Notes: generated from the sequence alone by a model not told the origin. A stretch of 64,000 bases of DNA from Parerythrobacter sp. (GCA_028289565.1 JANQPE010000110.1:2841-66840), one strand, 5' to 3'. Counted from the stretch's first letter, positions 3,748 to 48,286 are shown. Made by a program: numbers and translations.

Positions 3748-3826
3748 GGTACGTACTCCGAAGCGAATGCAAGACAAGTGCGAAGCGGGGTCAATAAAGT
3801 TGGCCCGGCTCCATGAAAGCAACCTG

Positions 3827-11887: not shown

Positions 11888-12697
11888 TCAATCGCTGGCA
11901 CCCAAATATCCAAGCTGGCCTGCCTTGAATATCGTTTGTGCACGGTTGACCGAATCCAGTTTTTCGCCTGAGCGATGGATGTGATAACGGATTGTCGCAT
12001 GGCTGCGATTAAGAATCATGCCGATTTCTCTATCGGTTTTGCCAATCGCGGCCCAGCGCAGGCATTCGACTTCGCGCTTCGATAACACACAATCCGAGGG
12101 AATCCGGCGCTTGGTCCGTATCGCCTGGACATAGCCAGCGATGAAGCGGCGCGTAATTTGAGAGAAGAAAGAGCCAAACGCGGCAAATTCCTCCGATAAA
12201 TCCTCTTTTTCACGATCCAGGCTAACGAAACTGTTGGCGGAGATTTGGCCAAAAGGCAGGTGGACCGGAATCACGATAGCTGCCTTGCAGAGCGATCTTT
12301 TCTTGAAATGGGTCAGGTCGATCTCCTGCAGGTACGAATTCGGCCAGCGCGTGTGAAATCCGTACTCGTTTACCCAGAATGGCTCGCTCTCATATCGGCA
12401 GGCGCGAGGGAGCGGTGAGTGCAAGGCCAGGCGGTGATCCTCCCACCAGCGTGAGCCGTCTTCCAACCAGTTGAAGATATCTGCGTTGAGAATCGTTCCT
12501 TCCGCATCGACCATCGGCTCTTTCGAGGAAATGTCTTCGCAAGTGGCAATTTGCATCCCGCGTTCTTGCGCAATACGCGCCATCACCACGGCCGCATCAT
12601 GAATATCGTCGACGCAGTGGATGGTGACCCGGTCAAGCAGCTGATCCAACTCTTCCCGCCCTTGCGGCGTACGTAGCTCAACGACATTGGCTGCCAT
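11888..12697 (-). CDS. LuxR-family transcriptional regulator, quorum-sensing-type architecture (ligand-binding N-domain plus C-terminal HTH)
   Basis: 269 aa. The C-terminal LSKREVECLRWAAIGKTDREIGMILNRSHATIRYHIHRSGEKL matches the TraR/LasR-type HTH_LuxR region. The N-terminal ~190 aa have W-rich segments (RWWEDH...EPFWVNEYGF). Confidence 0.8.
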   Translation of the reverse strand: MAANVVELRTPQGREELDQLLDRVTIHCVDDIHDAAVVMARIAQERGMQIATCEDISSKEPMVDAEGTILNADIFNWLEDGSRWWEDHRLALHSPLPRACRYESEPFWVNEYGFHTRWPNSYLQEIDLTHFKKRSLCKAAIVIPVHLPFGQISANSFVSLDREKEDLSEEFAAFGSFFSQITRRFIAGYVQAIRTKRRIPSDCVLSKREVECLRWAAIGKTDREIGMILNRSHATIRYHIHRSGEKLDSVNRAQTIFKAGQLGYLGASD

Positions 12698-12832: not shown

Positions 12833-13729
12833 TTAGCCGCGCTCGGCCTTGTCCTTTTGGTTGGTCGCCTCGATCATATCGCGCATCCGTGTCCACTCTT
12901 CATCGCCAAGCGCCTGCAATGTTGCCCAGAAAGTCCCACCGGAGGCTTGATAGCCAGCGCCATCGATGGCGATGGTTTGTCCATTCACATATTCAGCACC
13001 CGGCCCCATCAGGAAGACGGCCAGATTGGCCAGCTCGTGCATCTCGCCATGTCGATTCATTGGATGCGCTTCCATCCTTGAATTCGCACCCTGACCATCT
13101 GGGGATAGGCGTGCACTCATCCCCTTGGTCGGGAAAAGGCCGGGGGCAATGGCGTTGAAGCGCATGTTGTAGCGACCCCATTCAACCGCCAGACTCTGCG
13201 TCATCGCGTTAATAGCGCTCTTGGACATGGCAGAAGGCACGACAAATGCCGATCCATTCCATACCCAGGTGGTTAGGATCGAGAGGAAATTGCATCTGCC
13301 CTTTTCCGCGATAATGCGCGTGCCGACATTGTGTGTGACATAAAAAGTTCCGCGAAACACGATATCCGCGATTGCATTGAAACCGTTGATCGACAAATCT
13401 TCTGTTCGGCTGATGAAGTTGCCCGCAGCGTTGTTGACTACGCCTGTCAAAGCTCCGCCGTCGGCCCAGATCGCATCGATCATGGCATTGATCGCCTCCG
13501 CGCTGCGGATATCACATGCATGAGCGACTACCTTGCCGCCATGAGCCTCCATCAACTCAGCGGCAGTTTCGTCCAGCTTTCCCTGCCTTCGACCGCAAAT
13601 ATAGACTGTGGCGCCCAGCTTGATGAAGGCCTCTGCCATTTCACGGCCAAGACCGGTGCCACCGCCCGTGACCAAGATGCGCTCACCTCGGAGAATGTCG
13701 TCGCGAAACATCAGTTGGGTAACGTCCAT
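12833..13729 (-). CDS. SDR of the 2,4-dienoyl-CoA-reductase-like subgroup
   Basis: VTGGGTGLGREMA Gly motif. PSAMSKSAINAM...YNMRFNAIAPGLFPT resembles the DECR-type active-site region, which lacks the classical YxxxK. I moved the start to ATG 13729, behind AGGAGGG. Confidence 0.8.
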   Translation of the reverse strand: MDVTQLMFRDDILRGERILVTGGGTGLGREMAEAFIKLGATVYICGRRQGKLDETAAELMEAHGGKVVAHACDIRSAEAINAMIDAIWADGGALTGVVNNAAGNFISRTEDLSINGFNAIADIVFRGTFYVTHNVGTRIIAEKGRCNFLSILTTWVWNGSAFVVPSAMSKSAINAMTQSLAVEWGRYNMRFNAIAPGLFPTKGMSARLSPDGQGANSRMEAHPMNRHGEMHELANLAVFLMGPGAEYVNGQTIAIDGAGYQASGGTFWATLQALGDEEWTRMRDMIEATNQKDKAERG

Positions 13730-13757
13730 CACTATCCCTCCTGCGAGAATTGTGTGG

Positions 13758-14966
13758 TCAGAGACCCAAGACTGTCTTGGCGATAATGTTCTTTTGCACT
13801 TCGTCCGAGCCGCCAAAAATCGTTGCCGCACGATTATTCAAATACCTGCCCATCGCGGTTTGCGCAGCTTGGCTGCCAACAGGCTCGGGCGCTTCGTTGC
13901 CGTATAATGGCCGCTCCATGGGCAATTGCAGTGCGTCGAACCCCAACAGTTCGAGCCGCAGTGTGTCAACTTGTTGACCAATGTTCGACCCCAGCATCTT
14001 GACGAGCGATGTCTGCGGGCCGGGTTGGCGTCCTTTGGCGAGGTCAGCCAGAATCCTGAGTTCTGTAAATTCAAGCGCCTCGGCATCCAGCTTTACGCGT
14101 GCGAGCTTGTCTCTGAAACGCGGGTCATGCGCCACGGCTCCATTCACGCCCGATGGCTGCTCTTTCGCTGCACTCTCCAACCATTCGATGTTTTTGAGCA
14201 ACCGTGGGGCGAAGCAGGAACCGCCCCTTTCGTTTTCGAGCAGGAACTTGGCGATAGTCCAGCCCTGGCCTTCTTCCCCGATGCGATTGTCAACTGACGA
14301 CACCGCATCGGAAAAGAACACCTGATTGACCTCATGGTCGCCTGACATGGAGAGGGTGGGTGTGACTTCCACCTCGTCCTGATCCATCGGGATCAGCAGG
14401 AATGTGATGCCTTGCTGCTTTTTGACACTGGCATCGGTGCGGACCAGCGCGAAGATCCAATTCGCATGGTGCGCGTGGGTCGTCCACATCTTTGATCCAT
14501 TGACCACATATCTGTCACCATCGAGCCGGGCCGATGTCTTGAGCGATGCAAGGTCTGAGCCAGAGCCGGGCTCGGAATAACCTTGGCACCAATAATCTTC
14601 GCCGGAGAGAATGCGCGGGAGAAAACGGGCCTTTTGTTCTGGTGTCCCGAATTTGCAGATCACCGGCCCGACCAGCCGCAATCCCAAAATGGATAGGGCA
14701 GGCGCGCCTGCAAGCGCCAATTCCTTTTCAAAGATGAATTTCTGTGTGGGAGTCCAGCCAGTGCCCCCATCTTCCACGGGCCAATGATAGGCTACCCAGC
14801 CTTTTTCATTGAGTATTCGGTGCCATTCAAGTCCTATGTCGGGTTCGACGAACACGCCTGGCGTGCGCTTCGCGCCATCGCGTAGCCTGTCTGGAAGATT
14901 GGCTCTCAGAAACTTACGAACTTCCTCTCTGAAGGCAAGATCTTCTTTCGAAAATTGCAGATCCAT
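13758..14966 (-). CDS. Acyl-CoA dehydrogenase family protein
   Basis: ACAD N/M/C layout with WCQGYSEPGSGSDLASL and a C-terminal IFGGSDEVQKNIIA segment. I moved the start to ATG 14966 (MDLQFSKEDLAFREEV). Confidence 0.88.
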   Translation of the reverse strand: MDLQFSKEDLAFREEVRKFLRANLPDRLRDGAKRTPGVFVEPDIGLEWHRILNEKGWVAYHWPVEDGGTGWTPTQKFIFEKELALAGAPALSILGLRLVGPVICKFGTPEQKARFLPRILSGEDYWCQGYSEPGSGSDLASLKTSARLDGDRYVVNGSKMWTTHAHHANWIFALVRTDASVKKQQGITFLLIPMDQDEVEVTPTLSMSGDHEVNQVFFSDAVSSVDNRIGEEGQGWTIAKFLLENERGGSCFAPRLLKNIEWLESAAKEQPSGVNGAVAHDPRFRDKLARVKLDAEALEFTELRILADLAKGRQPGPQTSLVKMLGSNIGQQVDTLRLELLGFDALQLPMERPLYGNEAPEPVGSQAAQTAMGRYLNNRAATIFGGSDEVQKNIIAKTVLGL

Positions 14967-14970
14967 TACC

Positions 14971-15726
14971 TCAGTTTCCCTCCCGCATTGCCCAGACAAT
15001 CGAGCGTCTCAGCAAGTCGTAATAGACATCATAGTTCCAGGCGCACATTTCCTTATGCGGATAGAAGTCGGCCATACCAGGTAAATCATAATGACCACGA
15101 CAATGACCAAGGGTGTTATAGACAATCCGACCCTCGCCAATGTCGCGTGTGTATAGGATAGGAACAGTGGTTCTATCCCATTTATCAGCAACGAAACCTG
15201 TTGCCTCGCCTTCAAATGTAGTCTGCATCAAGGTGTCAATCTTCGCAGTGATATTTGAAAGATAAAGCTCATCGACTATCTCGAAATTGTCGATGCCCTC
15301 GGTCAGTTCGTGATCTCGGCTCACGACTTCGACCTCAAACGGGCCGATCGGTGGGTGCGCCTTGAACTGCGTGCCGAGCATTTCCATCACATCTGGTCGA
15401 TCGTCGGGTGCATCGACCAGACCGCTTTCGGTGAAAACCAGAATGGAATTGGTGCCATGTAGCGCCAGCCATTTCCCACCGCCTTCGAGCCAGCTTCGTA
15501 ATTGTTGTGCTTGCTCCGCACTGGGCATCAGGTCGCAAGTATAGGTGATAAGAAAACGACAATCGTCGAGCCTTTCGAGGCCCGAATAATCGCAAGCCAC
15601 CGTGGTACGGATATGCGGATGCTCACCCAGCATCTTGAGCACTTCGAGCCGCGGATAATCTATGTCATGATATTTGCCCGCGGCGATGAAATGCGCATCG
15701 ATCCGTTTCGCTGGTTGTTTGCCCAT
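14971..15726 (-). CDS. ThuA-like (class-I glutamine-amidotransferase-like fold) protein, paralog 1
   Basis: ThuA-family signature blocks: GGKWLALHGTNS, FKAHPP, HELTEGI..F.IVDELY, GRIVYNTLGH, RRSIVWAM. I moved the start to ATG 15726 (MGKQPAKR), 4 nt after the upstream SDR stop. Confidence 0.7.
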   Translation of the reverse strand: MGKQPAKRIDAHFIAAGKYHDIDYPRLEVLKMLGEHPHIRTTVACDYSGLERLDDCRFLITYTCDLMPSAEQAQQLRSWLEGGGKWLALHGTNSILVFTESGLVDAPDDRPDVMEMLGTQFKAHPPIGPFEVEVVSRDHELTEGIDNFEIVDELYLSNITAKIDTLMQTTFEGEATGFVADKWDRTTVPILYTRDIGEGRIVYNTLGHCRGHYDLPGMADFYPHKEMCAWNYDVYYDLLRRSIVWAMREGN

Positions 15727-15730
15727 CTGA

Positions 15731-16501
15731 CTAGCTCCTGATCGATCCGCCGCCGTCGACCACAAAGTCGCATCCCGTGGTGAAACTGGCTTCATCGCTG
15801 GCCAGGAACACGACCGCACGCGCCACCTCTTCAGGCTCGCCAATGCGGTTCATTGGGTGCGTGGCCGCAAAATCCCGCTCGATATTCTCCGGTTCGTCCA
15901 TGCCTGAATATTTATAGCGATCATACATGGGGGTACGGATCGCGCCAGGATGAACCATGTTGGCGCGAATCGGCACGCCACGCTCTGCGCAGTCGAGGGC
16001 GATTGACCGTGTGAGGCCCAACAACCCGGCCTTCGAAGCACTGTAGGCGGCGACAAAGGCAGCCGCGCGAATTGCTATCATCGATCCGATGTTGACGATG
16101 GCACCCGGCTCTCCGCTTGCTTCCATTTCTGGGAGCGCAGCACGGCAGCCATAGAACGGGCCGTTGAGATTGATGTCGATGGTCCGTCCCCATGTGTCGA
16201 GCGATCCATCGACGACATTGCCAGGTTCCGAGATTCCCGCAATGTTGCAAAGCACGGTAAGCTTGCCAAAGCGCTCGACTGTCGCATTGACAGCCTTCTG
16301 CCATTGGCCAAGGTCGCGCACATCCAGTTCGAAGGCAGCGGCTTTCTCACCCAATTCCTCGGCCAGGGCATTGGCTTTGTCGAGTTGCACATCGCATAGC
16401 ATCACGCTGCCACCCTCGGCCACGATCAACCGGCCAACCGCCGCGCCGATGCCCTCGGCACCGCCCGTGACGAGGGCAACCTTGCCGCTCATGCGCCCCA
16501 T
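15731..16501 (-). CDS. Classical SDR (3-hydroxyacyl-CoA / hydroxysteroid dehydrogenase-like)
   Basis: 256 aa with TGGAEGIGAA, NIAG, the YSASK catalytic motif and HPGAIRTPM. AGGAGA lies 8 nt upstream of ATG 16501. Confidence 0.9.
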   Translation of the reverse strand: MGRMSGKVALVTGGAEGIGAAVGRLIVAEGGSVMLCDVQLDKANALAEELGEKAAAFELDVRDLGQWQKAVNATVERFGKLTVLCNIAGISEPGNVVDGSLDTWGRTIDINLNGPFYGCRAALPEMEASGEPGAIVNIGSMIAIRAAAFVAAYSASKAGLLGLTRSIALDCAERGVPIRANMVHPGAIRTPMYDRYKYSGMDEPENIERDFAATHPMNRIGEPEEVARAVVFLASDEASFTTGCDFVVDGGGSIRS

Positions 16502-16513
16502 CGACTGCTTCTC

Positions 16514-17662
16514 CTATCTTTCAAGAATGGCCACTGCGGAAAGGCCCGGCGCGCCATAAACATGGCTATAGCCCAGCTTGGGTGATCCCGGCACCTGCCG
16601 TTCGCCGGCGCGGCCACGCAATTGCTGCGTGTTTTCATAGATTTGCCTCAGGCCCGATGCACCGATTGGCTCGCCACAGGCAAGGCATCCCCCATCGGTG
16701 TTGATCGGCAGCTTGCCCCCGATTTCGCTCCAGCCTTGATCGAGCCATTCTTCCTGCTCGCCATCCTTGCAGAAGCCGTTTTCGGCCATATGCATAATCT
16801 CGGCGCCGCTTTCGGTGTCCTGCAATTGCGCTACATCGATATCTTGCGGACTGACACCAGCACCTTCGAATGCTGCTTGGGATGCAAGCACGGTTGGCTT
16901 GCCACCTTCCCTTATGCTTACGCCGGCCTGAAAAACCTCGAAACTGTCGGGCGGACGTGTCTTGACCGCAATCTTGGCAATGCGAACACCGTTAGCACCC
17001 AATTCACGCATCTTCTTTTCGCTGGCAAGGATCAAGGCCACGCCGCCTTCGGATGGCGAACAGAACATATATTTGGTCAGCGGATCGTTGATCATGGGGG
17101 CATTCATGATCGTATCGAGGTCAACCGGGCTTCGTCGCCACGCATGCGGTGTGACAGTGCCGTTGCGAAAGGCTTTCTCCGCCACACGGCCCAGTGCTTT
17201 GCGGCTGATTCCGTGCAACTGCATGTAACGCTGGATTTTGAGCGCAAAGAATTGCGTCGTAAGCATCATGCCGGTTTGCCCATACCATTCGGGCAAGCCA
17301 TAAGTGCTGGGCCGAGCGTTAAAGGCACCACGCGGATGCTTGTCGAAACCTACAGCGAGTGCGAGGTCATACATGCCGCTGGCAACTGCCATTTGCGCAG
17401 AGGCAAGCGCGCTGCCACCAGTGGCGCAGCCATTTGCAACATTAGTGAAGGGCAGGCTGGTAAGGCCCAACTCATTGACCATTATGTCGGCACTGCCTGC
17501 CGCTGCGGAACCGCCATAAGCGTATTCAATGTCGGGCCAATCGAGTCCGGCATCCTTCAAGGCTTCGCGAACCGCATAAACCCCCTGTTCGCGGCCCGAG
17601 CGGCCCTCAGTCCGTCCAAACGGATGAATGCCGGCACCGATGATATAGACATTTTCGCTCAT
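16514..17662 (-). CDS. Thiolase-fold protein of the SCP-x / lipid-transfer (Ltp) type
   Basis: MSENVYIIGAGIHPFGR..., the NVANGCATGGSAL active-site Cys region and a C-terminal GGCLACGEPIGASGLRQ segment. The ATG 17662 start overlaps the upstream DUF35 stop (ATGA). Confidence 0.85.
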   Translation of the reverse strand: MSENVYIIGAGIHPFGRTEGRSGREQGVYAVREALKDAGLDWPDIEYAYGGSAAAGSADIMVNELGLTSLPFTNVANGCATGGSALASAQMAVASGMYDLALAVGFDKHPRGAFNARPSTYGLPEWYGQTGMMLTTQFFALKIQRYMQLHGISRKALGRVAEKAFRNGTVTPHAWRRSPVDLDTIMNAPMINDPLTKYMFCSPSEGGVALILASEKKMRELGANGVRIAKIAVKTRPPDSFEVFQAGVSIREGGKPTVLASQAAFEGAGVSPQDIDVAQLQDTESGAEIMHMAENGFCKDGEQEEWLDQGWSEIGGKLPINTDGGCLACGEPIGASGLRQIYENTQQLRGRAGERQVPGSPKLGYSHVYGAPGLSAVAILER

Positions 17663-18075
17663 GCAGCGCGCTCCGGCTGGAAGGCAAAGGTTGAATATTG
17701 CTGGTTGAACGGGACCACGCAAAACTCCATCGGCATACCCAATTTCAATTGTTCGAGCGTGGCCCCAACGATTCTACTTTCAACGATCACCTCGCCTGGA
17801 AGCTCGACATATCCGAGAAGGAAGGGAACAAAGTCTTGCGGTCCTTCGCCATCACCGTTGCCGGGTCCTTCATAGGGTTCCTTGGGCAGGAAGCCCTGAC
17901 TCGTCCAACTCCAAAGCCTGCCTTTGCGTGCTAGCTTGTAAGGTTCGACATCGCTTGCGGCATCTCCTTGCGGCATGGGAAAGACGATCTCACCCGATGG
18001 CAACTTTCCCCCCATCAGGTGCGGTTCGGGACCATCGCTCCACAGATCGGGATCAATTGGCGTGAGCGTGGTCAT
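17659..18075 (-). CDS. DUF35-type OB-fold protein (thiolase/aldolase partner)
   Basis: 138 aa. Its size, its position directly upstream of an Ltp-type thiolase and the OB-fold segment (GRLWSWTS...FLLGYVELPGEVIVESRIVG) fit DUF35. The usual N-terminal Zn-ribbon cysteines are absent. Confidence 0.7.
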   Translation of the reverse strand: MTTLTPIDPDLWSDGPEPHLMGGKLPSGEIVFPMPQGDAASDVEPYKLARKGRLWSWTSQGFLPKEPYEGPGNGDGEGPQDFVPFLLGYVELPGEVIVESRIVGATLEQLKLGMPMEFCVVPFNQQYSTFAFQPERAA

Positions 18076-19148
18076 GCCGCCTCCGCATATTTTGAGATAT
18101 TGCTGTCAACGTCTCCGAAAAGGCGTGTGAGCACAAGCATGCGCTTCATTGCATGGCCAACTGCCAATTCATCGGTGATGCCCATTCCTCCATGCATCTG
18201 CACCGCCTCGCGAGCGATATGATCGACATTCTGCGACACAAAGGCTTTGGCACCGGCTGTTACACGCTGCCAATTCGCGGCATCTGCCCGGTCGCTAAGC
18301 GTGGCGCGATAGAGCATCGAACGCGATTGCTCGAGCAGTGCATAGCAATCGACCAGCCGGTGCTGCAGCGACTGGAATGAGCCGATGGGAACGCCAAATT
18401 GTTCGCGTTCCTTGACATATGCCAGCGTATCATCAAGCAACCTTTGCCCCAGCCCAACCAGTTCTGCTGCGGCAAGCAGGCGCACATCAGCAGCGCTTTG
18501 CACCAAGGCTTCACCTGACGCGTTGAGCCTGTGTTCGCTCGCTATTTTCACGTGGTTGAAACGTAGCTCACCCGCTATGCTTCCATCGGCCATCCGATAG
18601 TGGCGCAGGTCCAGACCCTCGATCTCGCGCGGGAGGCAAAGGAGTGCAATTTCCCCTCCTTCGTTTGCGGTCACGATGAATTGATCAGCGAGTCCCGCAC
18701 CCAGAACAAAGGTTTTCTCGCCGGTCACGACATTTGCATCGATCCGCGTTTGCTGCGGCTGGACATTGTAACGCTGGCTACGCTCAGCCCAGGCCAGGGC
18801 GAACAGAGTTTCGCCAGACATGGCGGCTTCCAGCCTGTCTCCCGCACCTGCCTGCGCCAGCAGCGTTGCCGGCAGGGCACCGTTTTCCAGCCATGGATCA
18901 GGCGATATCATTTTGCCGATCGCTTCGCTGATCAGGGTCAGATCGACAGGCGAACCGCCCATTCCTCCCTGGCCTTCGCCAACAGCCAGCGCAATCAGGC
19001 CCAGCCCTGCCAGTTCTTTCCAGCGTGCGCGATCATATCCGCCTTCCAGGGAACGCAATTTGCGTCGCGCTTCCACGTCGATCGGCGCGGCAAATCGCTC
19101 TATAGTCGCCGTGAATAATTTCTGTTCTTCGGTTAGATCGAAATTCAT
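18072..19148 (-). CDS. Acyl-CoA dehydrogenase family protein (short, 358 aa)
   Basis: ACAD pattern: MNFDLTEEQKLF..., LGLIALAV.E..GG.G, and a C-terminal REAVQMHGGMGITDELAVGHAMKR segment. ATGA overlaps on both sides. Confidence 0.85.
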   Translation of the reverse strand: MNFDLTEEQKLFTATIERFAAPIDVEARRKLRSLEGGYDRARWKELAGLGLIALAVGEGQGGMGGSPVDLTLISEAIGKMISPDPWLENGALPATLLAQAGAGDRLEAAMSGETLFALAWAERSQRYNVQPQQTRIDANVVTGEKTFVLGAGLADQFIVTANEGGEIALLCLPREIEGLDLRHYRMADGSIAGELRFNHVKIASEHRLNASGEALVQSAADVRLLAAAELVGLGQRLLDDTLAYVKEREQFGVPIGSFQSLQHRLVDCYALLEQSRSMLYRATLSDRADAANWQRVTAGAKAFVSQNVDHIAREAVQMHGGMGITDELAVGHAMKRMLVLTRLFGDVDSNISKYAEAA

Positions 19149-20383
19149 GAAACACGTTCGTAGGTTATCGGCAGTTTGGTGACGCCACGCAGAAGAATAT
19201 TGGGAAGAATCGCAATTCCGCCTTCATCGGCAAGCGCGAAATTATCCAGCCGTTCCAACAGTTCATCAAATGCGACGAACATCTCTTTACGGCTAAGCAT
19301 ATTACCCACGCACATATGCGGGCCTTTGCCGAAGGCGAGATGTGCGCGGGCATTCTTTCGCTCGATATCGAATTTGTCTGGCTCTTCAAACTTGCTGGGA
19401 TCGCGGTTGGCCGCAGCATAGCGAAGCTGCACCATCGCGCCCGCCGCTATGGCCTGGCCACCCAGTTGCGTGTCTTCCTTTACCAGCCGCCACATGCCTG
19501 CCGTAGGCGTTTCATAACGCAGCGCCTCTTCAACCATGTTCTGAATGAGCTTGGGGTCGCGCCCGCCTGCCGCTGCCCTGGCTTTTTCCATCTGCTCCGG
19601 GTTGCGGATCAGTTGCAGCATGCAGCCCGCAATGGTCGAAGTCGTCGTTTCGTTACCCGCAACCATGAATTGCTGCATGATCGACATGATCTCTTCATCG
19701 GTTAGCGGAGTCTCGCCTTCGACGCGCGCTTCTACGAGGTCGGTGAGCAAATCGTCGCCCCCTTCCTTCCGACACTCGTCGATCTTTGCCTTCATGTATT
19801 TCTGATAATCGACAAAGGCGTGGGCGCATTCGAGCTGACGTTCGCGGTCCACCATCTGACTGAACCGGTCGACTGCCGCATCGGACCACTCTTTCACCTG
19901 TTTCGGGTCATTATCCAGCCCGATCTGTTGGGCGATCATTGCAACCGGTAGCGGTATTGAAAAATCCTCGACGAAATCGCCTTCGCTTTTGCTTGCCATC
20001 GCATCGATCAGTTCGATCGATTTAGCGCGCATGTCTTCTTCGATTGCATTCACTCGAGGAGCAGAAAACGCGAGATTGACCAGCTTGCGATTGCGCGTGT
20101 GAACCGGGTGATCCGCAGTCAGCAGCGTAGGGGGATTATCCCATCCTTCGGCCAAAATTTCACGAATTTCCTCATCATCGGCACCCATCAGCGCGGTGAA
20201 ATCGCTGGAGTATATTTCAGGCTTGGCGGTCGCTTCTGAACACAGGTCGTAACTGTATACGATGTAGGTGTTCATCTCAGGCAGATGCTCGATCTTGACC
20301 CTGGCATCGTGCATGGCGCGATAGTGATCAAAGGGGTTTACCAGTGTCTCCGGGGCAAACATGTTCCCTTGTGGCTTATTCAT
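19145..20383 (-). CDS. Cytochrome P450
   Basis: 412 aa with the ExxR motif (EEALRYETP) and the heme-thiolate loop FGKGPHMCVGNMLSRKE. Confidence 0.92.
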   Translation of the reverse strand: MNKPQGNMFAPETLVNPFDHYRAMHDARVKIEHLPEMNTYIVYSYDLCSEATAKPEIYSSDFTALMGADDEEIREILAEGWDNPPTLLTADHPVHTRNRKLVNLAFSAPRVNAIEEDMRAKSIELIDAMASKSEGDFVEDFSIPLPVAMIAQQIGLDNDPKQVKEWSDAAVDRFSQMVDRERQLECAHAFVDYQKYMKAKIDECRKEGGDDLLTDLVEARVEGETPLTDEEIMSIMQQFMVAGNETTTSTIAGCMLQLIRNPEQMEKARAAAGGRDPKLIQNMVEEALRYETPTAGMWRLVKEDTQLGGQAIAAGAMVQLRYAAANRDPSKFEEPDKFDIERKNARAHLAFGKGPHMCVGNMLSRKEMFVAFDELLERLDNFALADEGGIAILPNILLRGVTKLPITYERVS

Positions 20384-20482
20384 TGCGGGCTCCGGTCAGA
20401 GATTGCATATTGGCAAACTAGCCACCCAACCCCCCATAGGGCGATGCGTCAAAGTGCTAGGGCGTAACCAAATTAGCGAGTA

Positions 20483-20863
20483 TTACAGCGCAAATTCGTG
20501 CTGAAATTGCGCCATGTCGAAATAATCACGCCAGGCGGCAATCTTACCCTCGCGGTTGATCTGAAAAATACCCATCACCGGGAGAGCCGCACGCCGCCCG
20601 TCCTTGAGCAGGAATGCATCGGTTCGTTCGGTCAAGACCATGTCTTGATTGGCAGCGATGGCATGAATTTCCCACTCGCATTTTTCGACTGGCTCCATGA
20701 ATCCGTCGACGGCTTCGCGCATTGCAGCCAAGCCCTTAATCGGCTCCATCGGGATATTGTGCCACGTAATGTCTTGTGCGCACATGGAATACATCGCCTC
20801 CAGATTACCGCTGTTCCAATGTTCAACGAAAGTGCTCACGGCTTCACTGGGTGTCATCATCAT
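20483..20863 (-). CDS. Limonene-1,2-epoxide-hydrolase-like NTF2-fold protein
   Basis: 126 aa. It aligns by eye to my recollection of Rhodococcus LEH: WHNIPMEP, VLTERTDAF and PVMGIFQINREGKIAAWRDYFD. The Arg/Asp of TERxD and the Asp of WRDYFD are retained. Confidence 0.7.
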   Translation of the reverse strand: MMMTPSEAVSTFVEHWNSGNLEAMYSMCAQDITWHNIPMEPIKGLAAMREAVDGFMEPVEKCEWEIHAIAANQDMVLTERTDAFLLKDGRRAALPVMGIFQINREGKIAAWRDYFDMAQFQHEFAL

Positions 20864-21642
20864 GCTCCTGTAGTGAATGTTAGTGCATTGCCGATCAGGC
20901 GTCGCACATTTGGATCAGCATAGGTTTGCGGGCCATCACCGAATTGCAGATAGACCAGCGGCGCATCGCCTGCTTTGCGCCACCACGCTACCAGATTTGA
21001 CCCCTCCGAATGGTTCCAGCCTGCATTGGAATACATCTGCCCTGAAACGGCGAGTGCTGCCGAGTAAAAGTTGTCGCTCGTAAATTTATGGCTGGCGCGG
21101 ATCAGCGGATGGACCGCCGACTCATCGATTTGGCAAAGATAAAGCTCGTCGCGCAACGGAAAGGTGGAAGGCAGTCCATCGGTTACCGGGTGAGAGGCAA
21201 TGACCTCGGCGTCATATTCGACATCATGACGATAGCCGGAATCGGATACGTCTTGGCCTTTCCATCTGCCCGCCTGGTAAAGGAAGCGCCCGCCCAACAT
21301 CTCGGCCCATTCGGGCCAATCGGCCCAACCGGCAAGCGCATGGTGCATCGCCACCGCCCCCTTTCCCGCAGCGAAACGGCGGCGAATTGCCGATCTGAAT
21401 CCTTCTGAGGGTCGACATGAAGTCACCCCGCCATCGGCAAAGCTGTAGCCACCCATGTCATAGAACAACAAAGCATCGGCATGATCGGCGGCGCCATCGG
21501 CCACGGCCTCTTCGGCTCGTGGATGGACAAGATGGGTAACATTCCAATCGCCTAGAGAATGGATCAGTTCGTCGAACGGTTCAGCTTCGTAAGGGTGTCC
21601 GCCCGACAGGACGAGCAGGCTTCTTTGAAGCGTTCTTGCCAT
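20860..21642 (-). CDS. ThuA-like protein, paralog 2
   Basis: 260 aa with the blocks GKGAVAMHHALAGW..W.EMLGGRF, SHPVTDGLPSTFPLRDELY and PLVYLQFGDGPQTYADPNVRRLIGNAL. The start shares 1 nt with the upstream stop, and the stop overlaps the next ATG. Confidence 0.7.
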   Translation of the reverse strand: MARTLQRSLLVLSGGHPYEAEPFDELIHSLGDWNVTHLVHPRAEEAVADGAADHADALLFYDMGGYSFADGGVTSCRPSEGFRSAIRRRFAAGKGAVAMHHALAGWADWPEWAEMLGGRFLYQAGRWKGQDVSDSGYRHDVEYDAEVIASHPVTDGLPSTFPLRDELYLCQIDESAVHPLIRASHKFTSDNFYSAALAVSGQMYSNAGWNHSEGSNLVAWWRKAGDAPLVYLQFGDGPQTYADPNVRRLIGNALTFTTGA

Positions 21643-22655
21643 CAGGCGATCTTCAGAATCATCTTGCCCTGATTGGACCCGGCAAAGAGGCGCATGAATG
21701 CATCATAGGCATTCTCCAGACCTTCATCGACGTGCTCATCGACGACCAGCTTTCCGGCTGCTGCCCATTCACCCATTTGGACTGTGCCCTCGGCAAAGCG
21801 TTCAACATAGTCAGCCACGAGCAACCCTTCGATCTTCGCGCGCTTGACGATCAGGCGCCACAAGTTGCGCGCGCCAACCGGAGTGGGCGAATTGTACTCG
21901 CTTATCAGTCCGCATAAGCCGACGCGCCCTTTCATCGCCAAGTTTGTGAGGCTCGCATCAAGAATGATGCCCCCGACATTCTCAAAGATCACGTCTACAC
22001 CATCGGGTGCCGCAGCTGCTATTTCCACCGCGAGCGTTGCCTCGTCTTTGCCGCGGTAATCAATCGCGACATCATAGCCATAGCGATCAACCAGTTTGGC
22101 GCATTTTGCAGCCCCGCCCGCGATGCCGATGACCTTGCAGCCCGCGATCTTGGCCAATTGACCCACGATTGAGCCCACCGCGCCAGCGGCCCCTGTGACA
22201 AGTACGGTCTCCCCCTCTTTCGGATCGCACACGTCCAAGAGCCCAAAATAGGCGGTCATCCCTACCGCGCCAAACAGCGAGAGATAGTTGGTGACGTTGG
22301 GCACCAACCCGGGATCGATCGGCTGAGTAAACCCGCCCGCCTGACTGACCGAATAGTCTTCCAGCGCATGCAGGCCCATCACCCATTGGCCTTTCTCAAA
22401 GCCGTCGGCGCGGCTCTGTTCGACAATGCCGATCGTGCTCGCACGAACGGGAGCATTGAGAGGTATGGGCGGCATATAGCTGTCGGCATCGTCCATCCAT
22501 CCCCGCATGGCCGGATCAAGCGAGGCGTAGTGATTGCGGATGAGGAACTGACCTTCCGCAAGTTCAGGCACCGGCTCGCTCACCAGCTCGAAGTCTTCAG
22601 CAACAGGTTCACCATCAGGTCGGCGGCGCAGCAGGAAACGGCGATTTTCGCTCAT
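21642..22655 (-). CDS. NADP-dependent medium-chain oxidoreductase of the YncB/CurA/PTGR1-like (alkenal/enone double-bond reductase) type, paralog 1
   Basis: Cofactor loop VTGAAGAVGSIVGQLAKIAGCKVIGIAGG and a C-terminal LFAGSNQGKMILKI segment. I moved the start to ATG 22655 (MSENRRFLL). Confidence 0.82.
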   Translation of the reverse strand: MSENRRFLLRRRPDGEPVAEDFELVSEPVPELAEGQFLIRNHYASLDPAMRGWMDDADSYMPPIPLNAPVRASTIGIVEQSRADGFEKGQWVMGLHALEDYSVSQAGGFTQPIDPGLVPNVTNYLSLFGAVGMTAYFGLLDVCDPKEGETVLVTGAAGAVGSIVGQLAKIAGCKVIGIAGGAAKCAKLVDRYGYDVAIDYRGKDEATLAVEIAAAAPDGVDVIFENVGGIILDASLTNLAMKGRVGLCGLISEYNSPTPVGARNLWRLIVKRAKIEGLLVADYVERFAEGTVQMGEWAAAGKLVVDEHVDEGLENAYDAFMRLFAGSNQGKMILKIA

Positions 22656-22681
22656 TATTCGGTCCTTTGAATTCCGGGGTT

Positions 22682-24820
22682 TCAAGCAGCTTCTATTTTG
22701 ACCGGGATTGCACTTTGAAGTGCTTGGCCTGTGATAGGATCATAATCGACCTCCTCGCTGGTCAGGCGATTCGTCGATCCGCCCATCTCGCGGACATTGT
22801 GCTTACCAGCCTCGCTGTCGCCAAAGGCGTGAGCCATTGAGATCAATCCGCGTCGCACGCGATCACTGCCCTGTGCCACTCCATGAATGGAGGCATGCGG
22901 CGAAGAAATCTCGATCACATCGCCGTCCTTGATCTCTCGTGCTGCCATATCCTCCGGATGGATATAGGCCGGATTGGTGGTGATCTTTTTGCCCAGTTTC
23001 TTGAGTGGTTGGCCAATCGAGTTGAAGCGCGCTTTCGAGCGGCGCGAGATCAACTTGAAATCAAAGCCTGCTGTCCGTGCTTCATCAGCGCCGTATTTTT
23101 CCAACTGCTTGGGCATGCCGCCCGCTGCAAGCTGGAAGCGATAATGCTGTTCGGGGTCAGCCGCCTTGATCACTGGATGGAGATCGTCATAGATGACCGC
23201 AGCGCCACCAGCTTGTTGCGCATCTTCGCGCACCGTGCTGGGAGGCACAATGCATCCAGCCACCATCAGATCGAGAAATTCCTCCTTGGTAGGGCGTTTG
23301 TCCATTGGAACATCGCCCCCGGGCAGTTGCATCTGTACACCCAGATTGCTCCCGATCTGCCAAAGCATCTCAAATTCGTCGATCACATCGCCTGGCGCTT
23401 CCGCCAGCGCTTCGGTGTATCGTGCATATGCACGCTCATGCCACCATTCCGACAGATTGGTTATGTCTTCGCGTTCAAGGCATTGCTTGGGCGCAAGCAC
23501 CACATCGGCACGCTTGGCGCTGGCACTCATCCATGGGTCGATCTGGACGAATAGCTCCAGATCATCGAGTGCGCGGCGCATTTTGAGCTGATTGGGGAAG
23601 CCGACTTCGGGATTGCCGCCGACCGAAATCAGCGCACGGATTTGCCCTTCGCCAGGAGTGAGAATCTCGTCCGCCATGACATTGCAGGGCATTTCGAACA
23701 GTAATTGGCCTAGCCCGCGAAAGCGCGATTTGGCCATTCCGTCGACTCCGAACAACGGTGCGGGCGGTGCAACCTGGGCACGCCTTTCGCCCATTTGCAC
23801 CGTAAATACCCCGGGCACACCGCACTTTTCGCCTTCTTGTTTGAACCGTGCACAAACAGTGTTGAGGCAGGTGACGAGGTATTCAGTGAGTGTGCCATTG
23901 CCAGCCATTTCGGGCCCGGTTCCGGTAACGGCACATCCCTGTGAACCGCCTGCGAACATACGAGCTGCGGCTACAAGCTGGTCTTTTTCGACCCCCGCGC
24001 GTTGTGCGGCAACATCAGGTGTAAAGGCAGCGACGGCTTCTCGCAGTTCATCCAATCCGTCGACATGAGCGGCAACGAAGTTGCGGTCGTAAAGTTCCTC
24101 TTCGAATATTACATTGAGCATGCCTGCAAGCAGCGCGGGATCCTCACCCGGTTTAACAGGCAGGTAGATATCGGCAAGTTGGCCGACTTCCGCCAGGCGC
24201 GGATCGGCAACAATCAGCTTCAACCCGTCCTTCTGTCTGTCGCGGATGCGCTTGGATGGGCTGAATGGTGGCACCCCGCCGACAGGCGCATAGTGCGAGA
24301 CAATAGGATTATTACCGATGAATAGGGCAACATCGGCATCGGAAAAATTGTTCACGCCCCCCATCCACTTGCCATAACGCTCCGTCGTGAAAACCTTGGC
24401 TGGCTGATCGAGGGTGACCGAGGTGAAAAAGTGCTTGGTTCCGATTGCCTGCGCGAGGCTGAGCGTTGCCATCATTGCGGAGCTGTTTTGGTAACCGCCT
24501 GATCCCATGAACAATGCGATGGAATCCGGACCATGTTTATCGATGATTCGGCGGAATTCGTCGCTGACATGGGCCAGCGCGTCTTGCATCGGCGTCGACT
24601 GAAATTTCCCTTGCTCATCGCGCACCAAACTCATGTGCAGGCGATCTTCGGAATTGTGTGAGTCGGGCAGTTCTCGTCCCTTCATGCAGGTATAACCACC
24701 ATATTCCGGATCATCCGGATCCCCCCGCACCGCTTTGACTTTACCATCCTCGATATCGACCAGCATGGCGCAATTGGCGTGGCAGAAGCGGCAAAATGTA
24801 CGGTGTGTTTGAACGCCCAT
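22682..24820 (-). CDS. Molybdopterin (bis-MGD) oxidoreductase family protein, single subunit, no Tat signal
   Basis: It has the N-terminal 4Fe-4S Mo/W bis-MGD-type motif C-x2-C-x3-C-x27-C (CRFCHANCAMLV...GGYTCMKG), followed by the long molybdopterin-binding and C-terminal beta-barrel regions. I moved the start to ATG 24820 (MGVQTHRTF). There is no twin-arginine leader. Confidence 0.85.
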   Translation of the reverse strand: MGVQTHRTFCRFCHANCAMLVDIEDGKVKAVRGDPDDPEYGGYTCMKGRELPDSHNSEDRLHMSLVRDEQGKFQSTPMQDALAHVSDEFRRIIDKHGPDSIALFMGSGGYQNSSAMMATLSLAQAIGTKHFFTSVTLDQPAKVFTTERYGKWMGGVNNFSDADVALFIGNNPIVSHYAPVGGVPPFSPSKRIRDRQKDGLKLIVADPRLAEVGQLADIYLPVKPGEDPALLAGMLNVIFEEELYDRNFVAAHVDGLDELREAVAAFTPDVAAQRAGVEKDQLVAAARMFAGGSQGCAVTGTGPEMAGNGTLTEYLVTCLNTVCARFKQEGEKCGVPGVFTVQMGERRAQVAPPAPLFGVDGMAKSRFRGLGQLLFEMPCNVMADEILTPGEGQIRALISVGGNPEVGFPNQLKMRRALDDLELFVQIDPWMSASAKRADVVLAPKQCLEREDITNLSEWWHERAYARYTEALAEAPGDVIDEFEMLWQIGSNLGVQMQLPGGDVPMDKRPTKEEFLDLMVAGCIVPPSTVREDAQQAGGAAVIYDDLHPVIKAADPEQHYRFQLAAGGMPKQLEKYGADEARTAGFDFKLISRRSKARFNSIGQPLKKLGKKITTNPAYIHPEDMAAREIKDGDVIEISSPHASIHGVAQGSDRVRRGLISMAHAFGDSEAGKHNVREMGGSTNRLTSEEVDYDPITGQALQSAIPVKIEAA

Positions 24821-24960
24821 AACGCAAGATCCCTCTAATGTCGGTCGGCGCAAAGATACCAAAAATCCATAATTCCTCGACTGACATTTTTGGCCGTGGC
24901 TTGGATCGTCTGGAGGGCGCATTAGCCCGGTTGAAACAGATATCGATAAGGAGCTCGACC

Positions 24961-25962
24961 ATGCCATTCACAACCCGCCAGTGGCTGCTGAACGGACACC
25001 CGCGTGGCCGGGGAATCGAAGATGGGGATTTCAAGCTGGTGGAGACCGAACTGCCCGATCCCAGAGATGGTGAGATGCTGCTTGCGACACGTTATCTCGG
25101 ATTTGATCCCGCGCAAAAAGGGTGGATGGAAAACATCGCGGATTATGTTGCTCCGATGCAGATCGGCGAGGTTATGCGTGGCAGCGGGATTTGCGAAGTT
25201 CTCGAAAGCCGCAATGATGCGTTCAAGCCGGGCGATATGGTTTTTGGCACGACCGGCTGGACCGAGCATCTCGTTCACAATGGGCATGATCTCAACAAGA
25301 TCGAAACCGATCTGCCGGTGACAACGGTACTGTCCGTGCTCGGAACGACAGGCGTGACTGCCTATTGCGGGCTGTTCAAGGTTGGCAATCCAGTTGCTGG
25401 TGACACGGTGCTGGTTTCGGGCGCAGCGGGTGCGACGGGCTCAATCGTGGGGCAACTGGCCAGGATTGCTGGCTGCCGGGCCGTCGGCATCGCCGGCGGA
25501 CCCGATAAATGTCGATGGCTGGTAGAAGAAGCGGGCTATGATGCGGCGATCGATTACAAGGCAGGTGGCGTGGGCGATCAGATCAAGGAACACTGCCCGC
25601 ACGGTGTTGATGTGATCTTTGACAATATCGGCGGGTCGATCCTCGATGATATGCTGGCGCGGATCTCCACCGGGGCGCGTGTCGTGATTTGCGGTGGGAT
25701 TAGCCGTTATGAAACGGGCACTCTCCCTGCGGGGCCGCAAAATTACTTCAATCTGGTGTTCCGTCGCGCGAGCATGGCCGGATTTATCGTACTCGACTGG
25801 GCAGCGGAATTTCCGCTCATTCGCAAGCGTCTGGAGGGCTTCGTGAAGGATGGCAGACTGAGCTATCGCGAAGATATCCAGCATGGCTTCGAGAATGCGC
25901 CCGAGACCCTCAAACGCCTTTTCAGCGGTAAGAATAAAGGCAAGCAATTGCTGGAGTTGTGA
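24961..25962 (+). CDS. NADP-dependent MDR enone/alkenal reductase-type oxidoreductase, paralog 2
   Basis: VSGAAGATGSIVGQLARIAGCRAVGIAGG and LFSGKNKGKQLLEL. ATG 24961 lies behind AAGGAG. It is divergent from the molybdoenzyme gene. Confidence 0.85.
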   Translation: MPFTTRQWLLNGHPRGRGIEDGDFKLVETELPDPRDGEMLLATRYLGFDPAQKGWMENIADYVAPMQIGEVMRGSGICEVLESRNDAFKPGDMVFGTTGWTEHLVHNGHDLNKIETDLPVTTVLSVLGTTGVTAYCGLFKVGNPVAGDTVLVSGAAGATGSIVGQLARIAGCRAVGIAGGPDKCRWLVEEAGYDAAIDYKAGGVGDQIKEHCPHGVDVIFDNIGGSILDDMLARISTGARVVICGGISRYETGTLPAGPQNYFNLVFRRASMAGFIVLDWAAEFPLIRKRLEGFVKDGRLSYREDIQHGFENAPETLKRLFSGKNKGKQLLEL

Positions 25963-28482: not shown

Positions 28483-28589
28483 GTCCTTCTCCGTCTGCTT
28501 CGGTGCGATGCTAGACCGGATTTCGCCGTTGCGCACCTCGCCAAAATGAAGGGTTGCGCAGTTGAAGCGCGGCGCAGCAAATGGGAAGC

Positions 28590-31856: not shown

Positions 31857-31904
31857 TACCTGTCCTTGTTCAAGATCGCCTCTCATGGCTCTGTGAGAAT
31901 ATGC

Positions 31905-48284: not shown

Positions 48285-48286
48285 CG

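Follow-up and report, generated by a model that had tools for sequence, protein, structure and literature searches.

What does a predicted cytoplasmic molybdenum enzyme do at the head of a tightly packed set of oxygenase and acyl-coenzyme A (acyl-CoA) genes? The question is raised by a 64,000-nucleotide stretch of DNA from Parerythrobacter sp. (GCA_028289565.1 JANQPE010000110.1:2841-66840), which is referred to here as the window. Its positions 12,833 to 24,820 hold a block of twelve minus-strand genes, which encode a bis(molybdopterin guanine dinucleotide)-type molybdenum or tungsten enzyme (Mo/W-bisMGD; the Mo enzyme), an enone reductase of the medium-chain dehydrogenase/reductase (MDR) type, two ThuA-fold proteins (ThuA1 and ThuA2), a limonene-1,2-epoxide hydrolase (LEH) family enzyme, a cytochrome P450, two acyl-CoA dehydrogenases (ACADs), a DUF35 protein, a thiolase-like protein, and two short-chain dehydrogenases/reductases (SDRs), the last of which resembles 2,4-dienoyl-CoA reductase (DECR). 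Judged from sequence, there is about an even chance that the block is a conserved catabolic unit of Erythrobacteraceae and other Sphingomonadales, and that a hydrophobic carboxylic acid of the alicyclic or isoprenoid type (terpenoid- or steroid-like) is broken down by the island around it, with the Mo enzyme performing an O2-independent step. The anatomy of the block, the families of its products, its conservation, and its altered active-site residues were established directly.

Gene order, probable control elements and conservation of the block

All twelve genes and every junction described in an earlier note on this DNA were reproduced by open reading frame listing, translation, and a junction check (Table 1), and Pfam agrees with each of the twelve family assignments. 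The Mo gene is separated from the MDR gene by 26 nt, the MDR gene overlaps the ThuA2 gene by 1 nt at 21642 (TGATG), and the ThuA2 gene runs into the LEH gene through an ATGA overlap at 20860-63. The sole large gap of the block, with a length of 99 nt, lies between the LEH and P450 genes. Further ATGA overlaps connect the P450 gene to that of the small ACAD (19145-48), the small ACAD gene to the DUF35 gene (18072-75), and the DUF35 gene to that of the thiolase-like protein (17659-62). The thiolase-like, SDR, ThuA1, large ACAD, and DECR-like SDR genes follow one another at gaps of 12, 4, 4, and 28 nt in turn. The coding bases amount to 11832 (summed gene lengths, overlaps counted twice) in a span of 11988, and a Shine-Dalgarno-like purine run precedes most starts of the block. 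One length had to be corrected: the 413 residues given earlier for the large ACAD are those of the longest open reading frame, and the start that fits the 4-nt gap (ATG at 14966, Shine-Dalgarno GGGAGGG) yields 402 residues, which is the length of the orthologues.

Table 1. Features of the window, in order of position
Feature	Position	Strand	Size	Basis and context
LuxR/GerE-type regulator	11888-12697	minus		PF00196; 135 nt downstream of block
DECR-like SDR	12833-13729	minus	298 aa	NF005811 231 bits vs cutoff 318; variable last gene
Acyl-CoA dehydrogenase, large PimC-like subunit	13758-14966	minus	402 aa	TIGR03204 389 bits vs cutoff 624
ThuA-fold protein 1	14971-15726	minus	251 aa	PF06283
Classical SDR	15731-16501	minus	256 aa	Pfam, NCBIfam
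SCP2/Ltp-type thiolase-superfamily protein	16514-17662	minus	382 aa	PDB 6hsj 3e-47, BbsB 7pxp 1e-45
Stand-alone DUF35 OB-fold protein	17659-18075	minus	138 aa	PF01796 only
Acyl-CoA dehydrogenase, small PimD-like subunit	18072-19148	minus	358 aa	TIGR03203 198 bits vs cutoff 653
Cytochrome P450	19145-20383	minus	412 aa	Pfam; nearest solved relatives
LEH-P450 gap, with conserved element	20384-20482	minus	99 nt	CCTAGCAC-TTTGAC-GCATCGC at 20441-20461; GCTAG about 19 nt further on
Limonene-1,2-epoxide hydrolase family enzyme	20483-20863	minus	126 aa	PF07858, 5AIF match
ThuA-fold protein 2	20860-21642	minus	260 aa	PF06283 66.5 bits
MDR-type NADPH double-bond (enone) reductase, CurA/LTB4-12HD-like	21642-22655	minus	337 aa	PF16884 + PF00107
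Mo/W-bisMGD enzyme, single-subunit, cytoplasmic (predicted)	22682-24820	minus	712 aa	PF04879 + PF00384 + PF01568
Divergent control region	24821-24960		140 nt	Between Mo gene and divergent MDR gene; alignment of upstream regions, 25 loci
Second CurA-like MDR enone reductase	24961-25962	plus, divergent	333 aa	NF058644 333 bits
ABM monooxygenase-like gene	25992-26333	minus		Orthology to Pfam-annotated L001, L004 genes
SnoaL_4 gene	26337-26750	minus		Pfam
KstD/4-oxocyclohexanecarboxylate-dehydrogenase-like (ChcC1-like) flavoprotein	28581-30212	plus		Family scan, synteny
Acyl-CoA ligase	30255-31886	minus		Family scan, synteny
Alpha-only Rieske oxygenase RHO3	38660-39952	minus		Family scan

A scan of one genome per species gave at least 588 relatives, and the neighbourhoods of the best 80 loci were compared by tblastn with the window proteins. 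Seventeen close loci have a Mo enzyme at least 70% identical to that of the window and enough flanking sequence. In 14 of them, among named isolates as well as metagenome-assembled genomes (MAGs), the full series MDR-ThuA2-LEH-P450-ACAD-DUF35-thiolase-SDR-ThuA1-ACAD follows the Mo gene, which excludes a chance origin of the block. The earlier note had made its case depend on the Mo and ThuA genes being conserved with the CoA module in related genomes, and in these loci they are. The DECR-like SDR is present in 10 of the 17, and the Sphingopyxis and Blastomonas loci are trimmed variants.

The 99-nt gap contains an element, CCTA(A/G)CAC...GCATCGC, which is kept in 19 of 19 loci of the upstream-region alignment, with flanking bases that are not. 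The window has no further match to it, Rfam holds no corresponding family, and the element probably serves the P450 gene as an internal promoter or operator. Because the gap holds this element in all 19 relatives, a single operon is not established. The stoichiometric complexes that the earlier note read from the tight coupling are likewise putative. We consider it rather unlikely that the block is a mosaic, in which a Mo-MDR-ThuA2-LEH unit stands beside a separately promoted P450-ACAD-DUF35-thiolase-SDR-ThuA1-ACAD(-SDR) unit, the two serving different steps or even different substrates. The packing would then be due to the shuffling and compaction of sphingomonad islands, and tight spacing would therefore be no proof of one pathway or of protein complexes. 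Besides the gap element, this explanation is favoured by the individual dispensability of LEH, ThuA2, ThuA1, and SDR2 in relatives, by Mo genes that occur without the CoA module in Gammaproteobacteria and, beside Rieske genes only, in Thermaurantiacus and Parasphingorhabdus, and by a related thiolase/DUF35/ACAD/E1 island on plasmid pNL2 of Novosphingobium aromaticivorans, which has no Mo gene within 14 kb. However, the two halves are adjacent and in the same order in the 14 close relatives and in the Sphingopyxis and Blastomonas variants, ThuA paralogues are present in both halves, and even very distant Mo paralogues lie in CoA-ester operons.

A second conserved non-coding element is located upstream of the Mo gene, where CAAAAATGTCAGTCG at 24878-24892 of the minus strand is followed by TGGTATCTT, an extended -10-like sequence. 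The consensus CAAAA(A/G)TG(T/C)CAGTCG, again followed by TGGTATCTT, precedes the Mo gene in 37 loci. The window contains two copies of the motif, compared with 0.14 expected, and the second, CAAAATTGCCAGTCG at 39996-40010 of the minus strand, is positioned 44 nt upstream of the Rieske gene RHO3. The copies before both the Mo operon and RHO3 argue for co-regulation and suggest a shared regulon. In Parasphingorhabdus loci, the gene that immediately follows the Mo gene downstream is a RHO3 orthologue. A consensus scan of the window for promoters and terminators gave sites fewer than, or no more than, those in shuffled sequences, and the window contains no Rfam match and no tRNA genes. A candidate regulator of the cluster is the LuxR/GerE-type protein, the gene of which stands directly after the large ACAD gene, the last of the operon, in loci L001, L004, L033, and those of Sphingopyxis.

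Farther from the window, the company of the Mo gene changes. Pseudomonadales MAGs, the Mo enzymes of which are 42-44% identical, have the order ThuA2-SDR-SDR-ThuA1-SDR-LEH-Mo-CoA ligase, then histidine phosphatase, EcKL/APH-type kinase, and P450 genes, with an MDR and a Rieske gene close by and no ACAD, DUF35, or thiolase genes. A Myxococcota locus is arranged as ABM-SnoaL-Mo-Rieske-ThuA, and Actinomycetota loci as P450-Mo-LEH. The coupling of the Mo gene to the CoA module claimed earlier thus holds among close relatives but is modular beyond them: the Mo/ThuA/LEH/P450 core stands without ACAD, DUF35, and thiolase genes in Gammaproteobacteria, and the Mo gene is found beside Rieske genes in other sphingomonads. 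Its placement beside O2-dependent enzymes is more general, since 45 of 55 loci with both flanks (about 10 kb) contain an oxygenase gene; a ThuA gene is present in 30 of the 55.

Mo paralogues with 28-37% identity lie in CoA-ester operons on annotated plasmids. In Sphingopyxis macrogoltabida, a CoA ligase gene overlaps the Mo start, and 2-hydroxyacyl-CoA dehydratase, OB-fold/thiolase, and ACAD genes are close by. An enoyl-CoA hydratase gene is directly downstream of the paralogue on Novosphingobium pentaromativorans pLA3, a gene for electron transfer flavoprotein-quinone oxidoreductase is divergent from it in Massilia, and a flavin mononucleotide (FMN) reductase gene follows it in Sphingobium JS3065; Deinococcus has an SDR-MaoC-PaaI-ACAD-SDR-kinase-phosphatase-Mo operon. 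The association of the Mo family with oxygenase and CoA genes is kept across at least five phyla. Acyl-CoA catabolism is therefore a recurrent companion of the Mo family in aerobes, and the association in this window is no accident.

RPE65-family oxygenase genes are located near the Mo gene in eight loci, L004 (8426-9880), L024, L038, L042, L054, L079, L080, and L083, and are absent from the window. The L004 gene, the one that was checked, is of the stilbene-cleaving NOV1/LsdA type, and the degradation of apocarotenoids or acetylenic carotenoids, which the recurrence of these genes had suggested, was downgraded for this reason.

The molybdenum enzyme and its relatives

The Mo enzyme exceeds the cutoffs of PF00384 (97 bits), PF01568 (66 bits), and PF04879 (51 bits), which places it in the bis-MGD superfamily. 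Its N-terminal 4Fe-4S motif is formed by C10, C13, C17, and C45, and these cysteines, together with Asp138, are invariant in an alignment of 41 sequences reaching 28% identity. The start at 24820 is confirmed by the lengths of the homologues, 708-718 residues. The earlier description of a leaderless, single-subunit enzyme was borne out, as the first iron-sulfur cysteine is residue 10 and there is no room for a twin-arginine translocation (Tat) leader. Proteins from Altererythrobacter, Erythrobacter, and Parerythrobacter are 88-90% identical, which assigns the window to an Erythrobacteraceae chromosome. Among the best 150 matches in 1.84 billion cluster representatives, about 100 are near full length (about 700-750 residues) with 29-54% identity, and the ten that were looked up carry generic names or none. 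No curated family or open-access paper was found that covers the Mo enzyme.

Pairwise and profile alignments place Asp138 opposite Sec140 of FdhH, the selenocysteine of F420-dependent formate dehydrogenase, the ligand cysteine of FdhF, and Cys141 of acetylene hydratase. The formate dehydrogenase active-site residues His141 and Arg333 are replaced by Gln139 and Gly337. Similarly, acetylene hydratase Asp13, beside the second iron-sulfur cysteine, corresponds to His14, a position that varies across the Mo family, and neither of the two acetylene hydratase hallmarks is kept. Nevertheless, acetylene hydratase (2e7z) is the only solved enzyme that aligns with the Mo enzyme end to end (E 8e-91, residues 5-694), and it is the top Foldseek match of a mediocre AlphaFold2 model of the Mo enzyme, with a template modelling (TM) score of 0.76. 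As the predicted local distance difference test (pLDDT) score of this model is 67.6, the Foldseek ranking was used only to back the profile result. Sequence, alignment, and TM score agree on the monomeric, leaderless, single-cluster architecture of acetylene hydratase. In NarG, ethylbenzene dehydrogenase (EBDH), and steroid C25 dehydrogenase (S25DH), which are type II enzymes, an aspartate is a ligand of the molybdenum. The invariant Asp138, at the ligand position of formate dehydrogenase- and acetylene hydratase-type scaffolds, is predicted from the alignment to be a metal ligand as well. The Mo enzyme is thus an acetylene hydratase-like monomer in architecture, Asp-type in predicted ligand, and neither in sequence, and it belongs to an uncharacterised, predicted Asp-type, acetylene hydratase-like clade of cytoplasmic bis-MGD enzymes.

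It is very improbable that the enzyme is a housekeeping molybdenum oxidoreductase, such as a formate dehydrogenase, assimilatory nitrate reductase, or S/N-oxide reductase, adjacent to the other genes by accident. Its top NCBIfam and PDB sequence matches are indeed Fdh-alpha, NasC, and PhsA, but all lie far under their cutoffs, and no NCBIfam model reaches its cutoff (best Fdh-alpha, 212 bits vs 666). Identity with formate dehydrogenase or nitrate reductase was rejected on these scores (the second being 153 vs 1100) and on the active-site residues, where the Sec/Cys-His pair and Arg333 give way to Asp-Gln and Gly. The association with oxygenase and CoA genes across phyla and the promoter motif common to the Mo gene and a Rieske gene also speak against it.

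A MobA-like NTP_transf_3 gene adjoins the cluster in 12 loci of the Erythrobacteraceae type (e.g. L001 8338-8856), where it is placed between the gene for ABM and that for the divergent MDR; it is an indirect hint that the enzyme may bind Mo or W with two MGD cofactors. It is absent at that position in the window and in the Novosphingobium locus L004. The divergent MDR gene is kept next to the Mo gene in relatives, and the ABM-like and SnoaL_4 genes are conserved upstream neighbours.

The CoA-ester module, the island and the proposed pathway

The two ACADs stay below the PimCD cutoffs and are related to pimeloyl-CoA dehydrogenase without being its equivalogs. The DUF35 protein consists of the OB fold only and has no Zn-ribbon cysteines; it is expected to be the partner of the thiolase-like protein, as the two genes form a translationally coupled pair that is conserved in relatives. 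The thiolase-like protein is nearest to SCP2-thiolase and BbsB, and also matches the Ltp structure 6ok1 (1.5e-26). Its nucleophile Cys79 is retained, HDCF is changed to QDTE, and GHP to GEP. Of the 31 sequences aligned, 30 (the window protein with 29 orthologues) show this pattern, down to about 60% identity, and the protein therefore represents a distinct subfamily and not a decayed gene. The earlier designation as an Ltp-type thiolase was right about the family, but with HDCF and GHP replaced the protein is not an SCP2 type-1 thiolase, and classical thiolysis appears doubtful from the sequence. The classical SDR may act as a hydroxyacyl-CoA or ring-alcohol dehydrogenase. The operon has no gene for an enoyl-CoA hydratase.

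The LEH family enzyme scores 65.7 bits with PF07858 (cutoff 24) and matches PDB 5AIF (Tomsk-LEH) over its full length (E 4.6e-52), with identical TERTD and WRDYFD stretches. By comparison with the Rhodococcus LEH, we take these stretches to hold the catalytic residues of this SnoaL/NTF2-fold family, Arg-x-Asp and a C-terminal aspartate. Tomsk-LEH is a crystallised and biochemically active limonene-1,2-epoxide hydrolase (PMC5408032). The nearest solved relatives of the P450 are CYP142, a CYP125 ancestor, and CYP124, which are terminal hydroxylases of sterol or methyl-branched chains. The MDR of the block and the divergent one belong to the same MDR subfamily as CurA but are not its equivalogs (NF058644, 331 and 333 bits vs cutoff 440). 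Three paralogous MDRs of the CurA/LTB4-dehydrogenase type, including that at 32441-33442, occur within 12 kb. This unusual density suggests that the substrate carries several conjugated C=C bonds.

The two ThuA-fold proteins score 70.9 (ThuA1) and 66.5 bits (ThuA2) with PF06283 (cutoff 33.4), which assigns both to the ThuA family with its class I glutamine amidotransferase-like fold, and share 22% identity with each other. A confident AlphaFold2 model of ThuA1 (pLDDT 85.5) matches solely structural-genomics ThuA-like proteins without assigned function, best 4jqs (E 3e-11, TM 0.69) and 4e5v. The literature searched establishes no chemistry for the fold and returned noise or one unproven "oxidase" statement. 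On N. aromaticivorans pNL2 (L090 4619-6834), a Rieske alpha-subunit gene is translationally coupled to a ThuA-domain gene, the second overlapping the stop of the first by 4 nt, which hints that in sphingomonad islands Rieske oxygenases and ThuA-fold proteins may act together.

An island of catabolic genes, about 40 kb long (roughly 5.4-44.4 kb of the window), surrounds the block. The island also encodes three alpha-only Rieske oxygenases, a TonB-dependent receptor, a major facilitator superfamily (MFS) transporter, the acyl-CoA ligase, the KstD-like flavoprotein, the three CurA-like MDRs, several SDRs, SnoaL-like and ABM proteins, two NmrA-like proteins, thiamine pyrophosphate (TPP)-dependent E1 alpha and beta subunits, a VOC protein, and the LuxR-type regulator. 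The KstD-like flavoprotein and the CoA ligase likely supply an enone ring and a CoA ester, respectively. The Rieske enzymes match PF00848 and not KshA models, and are nearest to CntA/GbcA-type monooxygenases. The E1 subunits are encoded at 6302-8268 without an adjacent E2, whereas N. aromaticivorans pNL2 (L090) has the E1 pair and E2 directly after the thiolase-ACAD genes. The E1 pair may cleave an α-hydroxyketone formed from the LEH diol. Ten unannotated open reading frames of the window have no match in PHROGs or Pfam.

The left end of the window (1-3915, minus strand) is a stop-free frame of more than 1305 codons that runs off the window, contains RHS repeats (PF05593, five stretches), and lies where the GC content of the window is lowest (about 52-53%). 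This truncated RHS/toxin-type gene borders the island. To the right of the island lies a complete cbb3-type oxidase locus (45718-53970) with ccoN (51536-53200), ccoO, ccoP, a ccoG-like FixG gene (48287-49801), and a P-type ATPase gene (45718-47904); a Crp/Fnr-type regulator gene (53269-53970) directly adjoins the island. The host is therefore able to respire at low O2, which may be relevant to an O2-independent Mo step.

The substrate is probably an alicyclic or isoprenoid acid, which is our best guess from the enzymes encoded. The substrate class, the order of the reactions, and the parts given to the Mo enzyme and the ThuA-fold proteins in what follows are inferred from these genes. The P450 and Rieske oxygenases would hydroxylate or epoxidise the substrate, and LEH would convert a ring epoxide that bears a methyl group into a diol. 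Enones would be produced by the SDRs together with the KstD-like enzyme, C=C bonds would be reduced by the CurA-like MDRs, and the CoA ligase would activate the acid. The PimCD-like heteromeric ACAD would then desaturate the ester, the DECR-like SDR would handle dienoyl-CoA, and the DUF35/thiolase-like pair would remove an acyl-CoA fragment. Because the HDCF and GHP residues are missing, this last reaction may be a retro-aldol or retro-Claisen cleavage instead of classical thiolysis. For the Mo enzyme we propose an O2-independent reaction, with water or with an oxygen atom, on an intermediate that is bound to CoA or destined for it, for instance hydration or water-derived hydroxylation at a carbon closed to the ordinary hydratase route, with the two ThuA-fold proteins as putative accessory partners.

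Several points weigh against this reading. The conserved motif of the 99-nt gap suggests at least two transcription units. A CoA-module gene occurs within about 10 kb in just 33 of the 55 loci, and the module is absent beside the Mo core in most distant loci. The search for ferredoxin and reductase genes across the window gave spurious matches only, and a redox partner for the P450, Rieske, and Mo enzymes was not found there. The model of the Mo enzyme was built from a shallow alignment and offers moderate confidence only. Some neighbours hint at phenolic substrates, namely the stilbene-type RPE65 genes of the eight loci, the NmrA-like and CurA-like reductases, and the demethylase-like Rieske enzymes. 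Finally, the literature search covered open-access text. In it, and among curated families and solved structures, no match to the combination was found, in agreement with the earlier statement that no characterised pathway has it.

A bolder proposal, which we make tentatively and regard as doubtful, is that the Mo enzyme founds a new class: an O2-independent, water-using hydroxylase or hydratase (or an oxo-transferase) that acts on acyl-CoA-linked terpenoid- or steroid-like intermediates in the cytoplasm of strict aerobes, beside P450 and Rieske enzymes and with dedicated ThuA partners. To our knowledge, bis-MGD enzymes that attack carbon skeletons come almost exclusively from anaerobes. The carriers of the Mo family examined are marine, freshwater, and soil aerobes from Sphingomonadales, OM60/Halioglobus-type Gammaproteobacteria, Ilumatobacteraceae, Dehalococcoidia, Myxococcota, and Deinococcus. 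With a leaderless, single-subunit enzyme of the Asp type in operons that depend on oxygenases and CoA, the known molybdenum chemistry of aerobic carbon turnover would become wider, and the processing of recalcitrant alicyclic or isoprenoid matter by abundant heterotrophs could be explained. If true, the proposal would moreover define a biochemical role for the ThuA fold for the first time and provide a handle on a thiolase-like family without canonical residues. Several cultured carriers exist, among them Parerythrobacter jejuensis, Altererythrobacter arenosus, Erythrobacter sp. GH1-10, Porphyrobacter sp. AAP82, and Blastomonas natatoria DSM 3183, which makes the question directly testable.

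Comparison with known systems

Acetylene hydratase of Pelobacter acetylenicus (2E7Z) resembles the Mo enzyme in being a monomeric, cytoplasmic protein of about 720-730 residues with one N-terminal 4Fe-4S cluster and neither Tat leader nor partners. The two share about 20% identity and differ in the replacement of Cys141 and Asp13 by Asp138 and His14, in the aerobic host, and in the multi-enzyme operon of the window.

Catechol dehydroxylases (Dadh, Cldh, and Dodh), compared here by description, come mainly from anaerobes, act as respiratory or biosynthetic reductases, and use a co-encoded small 4Fe-4S protein or a membrane anchor, none of which was found in the window. Streptomyces, in which a homologue occurs, is an aerobe. 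This homologue belongs to the CC-1065/yatakemycin clusters, and its cellular location is not stated (PMC7028382). The Gordonibacter catechol dehydroxylases are soluble, lack a Tat signal, are related to acetylene hydratase, and are encoded near MFS transporters (eLife 2020, PMC7028382). Leaderless, acetylene hydratase-related Mo enzymes were therefore already on record, and this trait, stressed in the earlier note, is not new in itself. We think it unlikely that the substrate is a phenolic compound of plants or algae (of the lignan, stilbenoid, or diarylheptanoid type), with the Mo enzyme as a reductive dehydroxylase, the Rieske enzymes as O-demethylases, and the CurA- and NmrA-like proteins as reductases of enones or benzyl ethers. 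Of the characterised clades, that of the catechol dehydroxylases is nearest to acetylene hydratase, and the island has three CurA-like MDRs, two NmrA-like genes, and Rieske enzymes nearest to the CntA/GbcA type; RPE65 genes lie near the Mo gene in eight other loci. However, the Mo enzyme's membership in the dehydroxylase clade is putative, no small 4Fe-4S partner or other electron donor was found in the window, and no ring-cleavage dioxygenase was identified in the operon. Moreover, aliphatic or alicyclic chemistry is a better fit for LEH, the P450 related to CYP142/125/124, the PimCD-like ACADs, the DECR-like SDR, and the flavoprotein resembling KstD/ChcC1.

Steroid C25/C26 dehydrogenases and ethylbenzene dehydrogenase, which belong to the type II dimethyl sulfoxide (DMSO) reductase family, are Mo enzymes that hydroxylate hydrocarbon carbons with water. 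They are alpha-beta-gamma heterotrimers from anaerobes that have a Tat leader and contain a haem b subunit, and their alpha subunits measure about 900-1000 residues (892-912 as target lengths of 2ivf and 4ydd). The Mo enzyme has no leader, the window contains no genes for an iron-sulfur beta or haem gamma subunit, and the EbdA score is 28 bits vs 2000. The analogy with steroid side-chain degradation drawn in the earlier note is thus one among several possible readings. In this variant, which also appears to us unlikely, the P450 would form a terminal acid of a sterol or bile acid, the ACAD, SDR, and thiolase-DUF35 proteins would shorten the chain, and the Mo enzyme would be a cytoplasmic analogue of the steroid dehydrogenases. 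The relationship of the P450 to CYP142, CYP125, and CYP124, the KstD-like flavoprotein, the SnoaL/KSI (ketosteroid isomerase)-like proteins of the island, and the aspartate at the ligand position, as in type II enzymes, are consistent with it. A heteromeric ACAD and a DUF35-thiolase pair are likewise features of steroid side-chain systems (PMC8399759). Nevertheless, the annotated part of the window, about 5.4-64 kb, showed neither a KshA-type (KshA_C) oxygenase nor Hsa, Ipd, or further core steroid genes, the Rieske enzymes do not match KshA models, the Mo enzyme is acetylene hydratase/formate dehydrogenase-like instead of type II, and the sphingomonad bile-salt cluster of Chol11 (below) differs in its gene set.

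Histidine-phosphatase and EcKL/APH-type phosphotransferase genes flank the Mo gene in L064 (12158-13974), L070 (13668-15471), and L089 (4604-6431), that is, in Gammaproteobacterial MAGs and on a Deinococcus plasmid. The pair is absent from the window. Lva/ACAD10 enzymes perform a kinase-driven dehydration in 4-hydroxyacyl-CoA chemistry, and the kinase/ACAD context of these relatives fits such chemistry as well as it fits a steroid route. The phosphotransferase can be likened to the 25-hydroxysteroid kinase (25-HSK) step, which accompanies the steroid C25 dehydrogenase route (PMC8449060).

Cluster 2 of Sphingobium sp. Chol11 (nov2c218-232) is similar to the block in coming from a sphingomonad, in encoding a CoA ligase, a heteromeric ACAD, and a Rieske monooxygenase, and in its unsolved cleavage mechanism. 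By its described gene set it is different, with hotdog-fold proteins and amidases and without thiolase or aldolase homologues, and identity with this bile-salt cluster was rejected; the terms "molybd", "P450", and "ThuA" are absent from the main text of the paper.

The BbsAB benzoylsuccinyl-CoA thiolase and the Ltp2-ChsH2(DUF35) aldolase combine an OB-fold DUF35 with an SCP2/Ltp-type protein that removes an acyl-CoA unit from a bulky substrate, and IpfD/IpfE of Sphingomonas Ibu-2 is an analogous pair. The thiolase-like protein of the window has a coupled DUF35 partner, as Ltp2 does, but keeps the catalytic cysteine, unlike Ltp2. It differs from true thiolases in QDTE and GEP, and its DUF35 partner lacks the Zn ribbon.

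The limonene pathway of Rhodococcus erythropolis DCL14 proceeds through an oxygenase, LEH, a diol dehydrogenase, ring opening, a CoA ligase, and β-oxidation, which is the same logic as that of the block. In the window, the epoxidising enzyme would be the P450 or a Rieske oxygenase, there is no Baeyer-Villiger monooxygenase, and ring opening may be performed by the TPP-dependent E1 subunits or other enzymes, whereas the Mo, ThuA, and MDR proteins have no counterpart in the limonene pathway. The component folds of the block are all known from other systems; what is new is the Asp-type, acetylene hydratase-like Mo clade predicted here, its conserved company of ThuA, LEH, P450, and CoA enzymes in aerobes, and the altered thiolase-like family.

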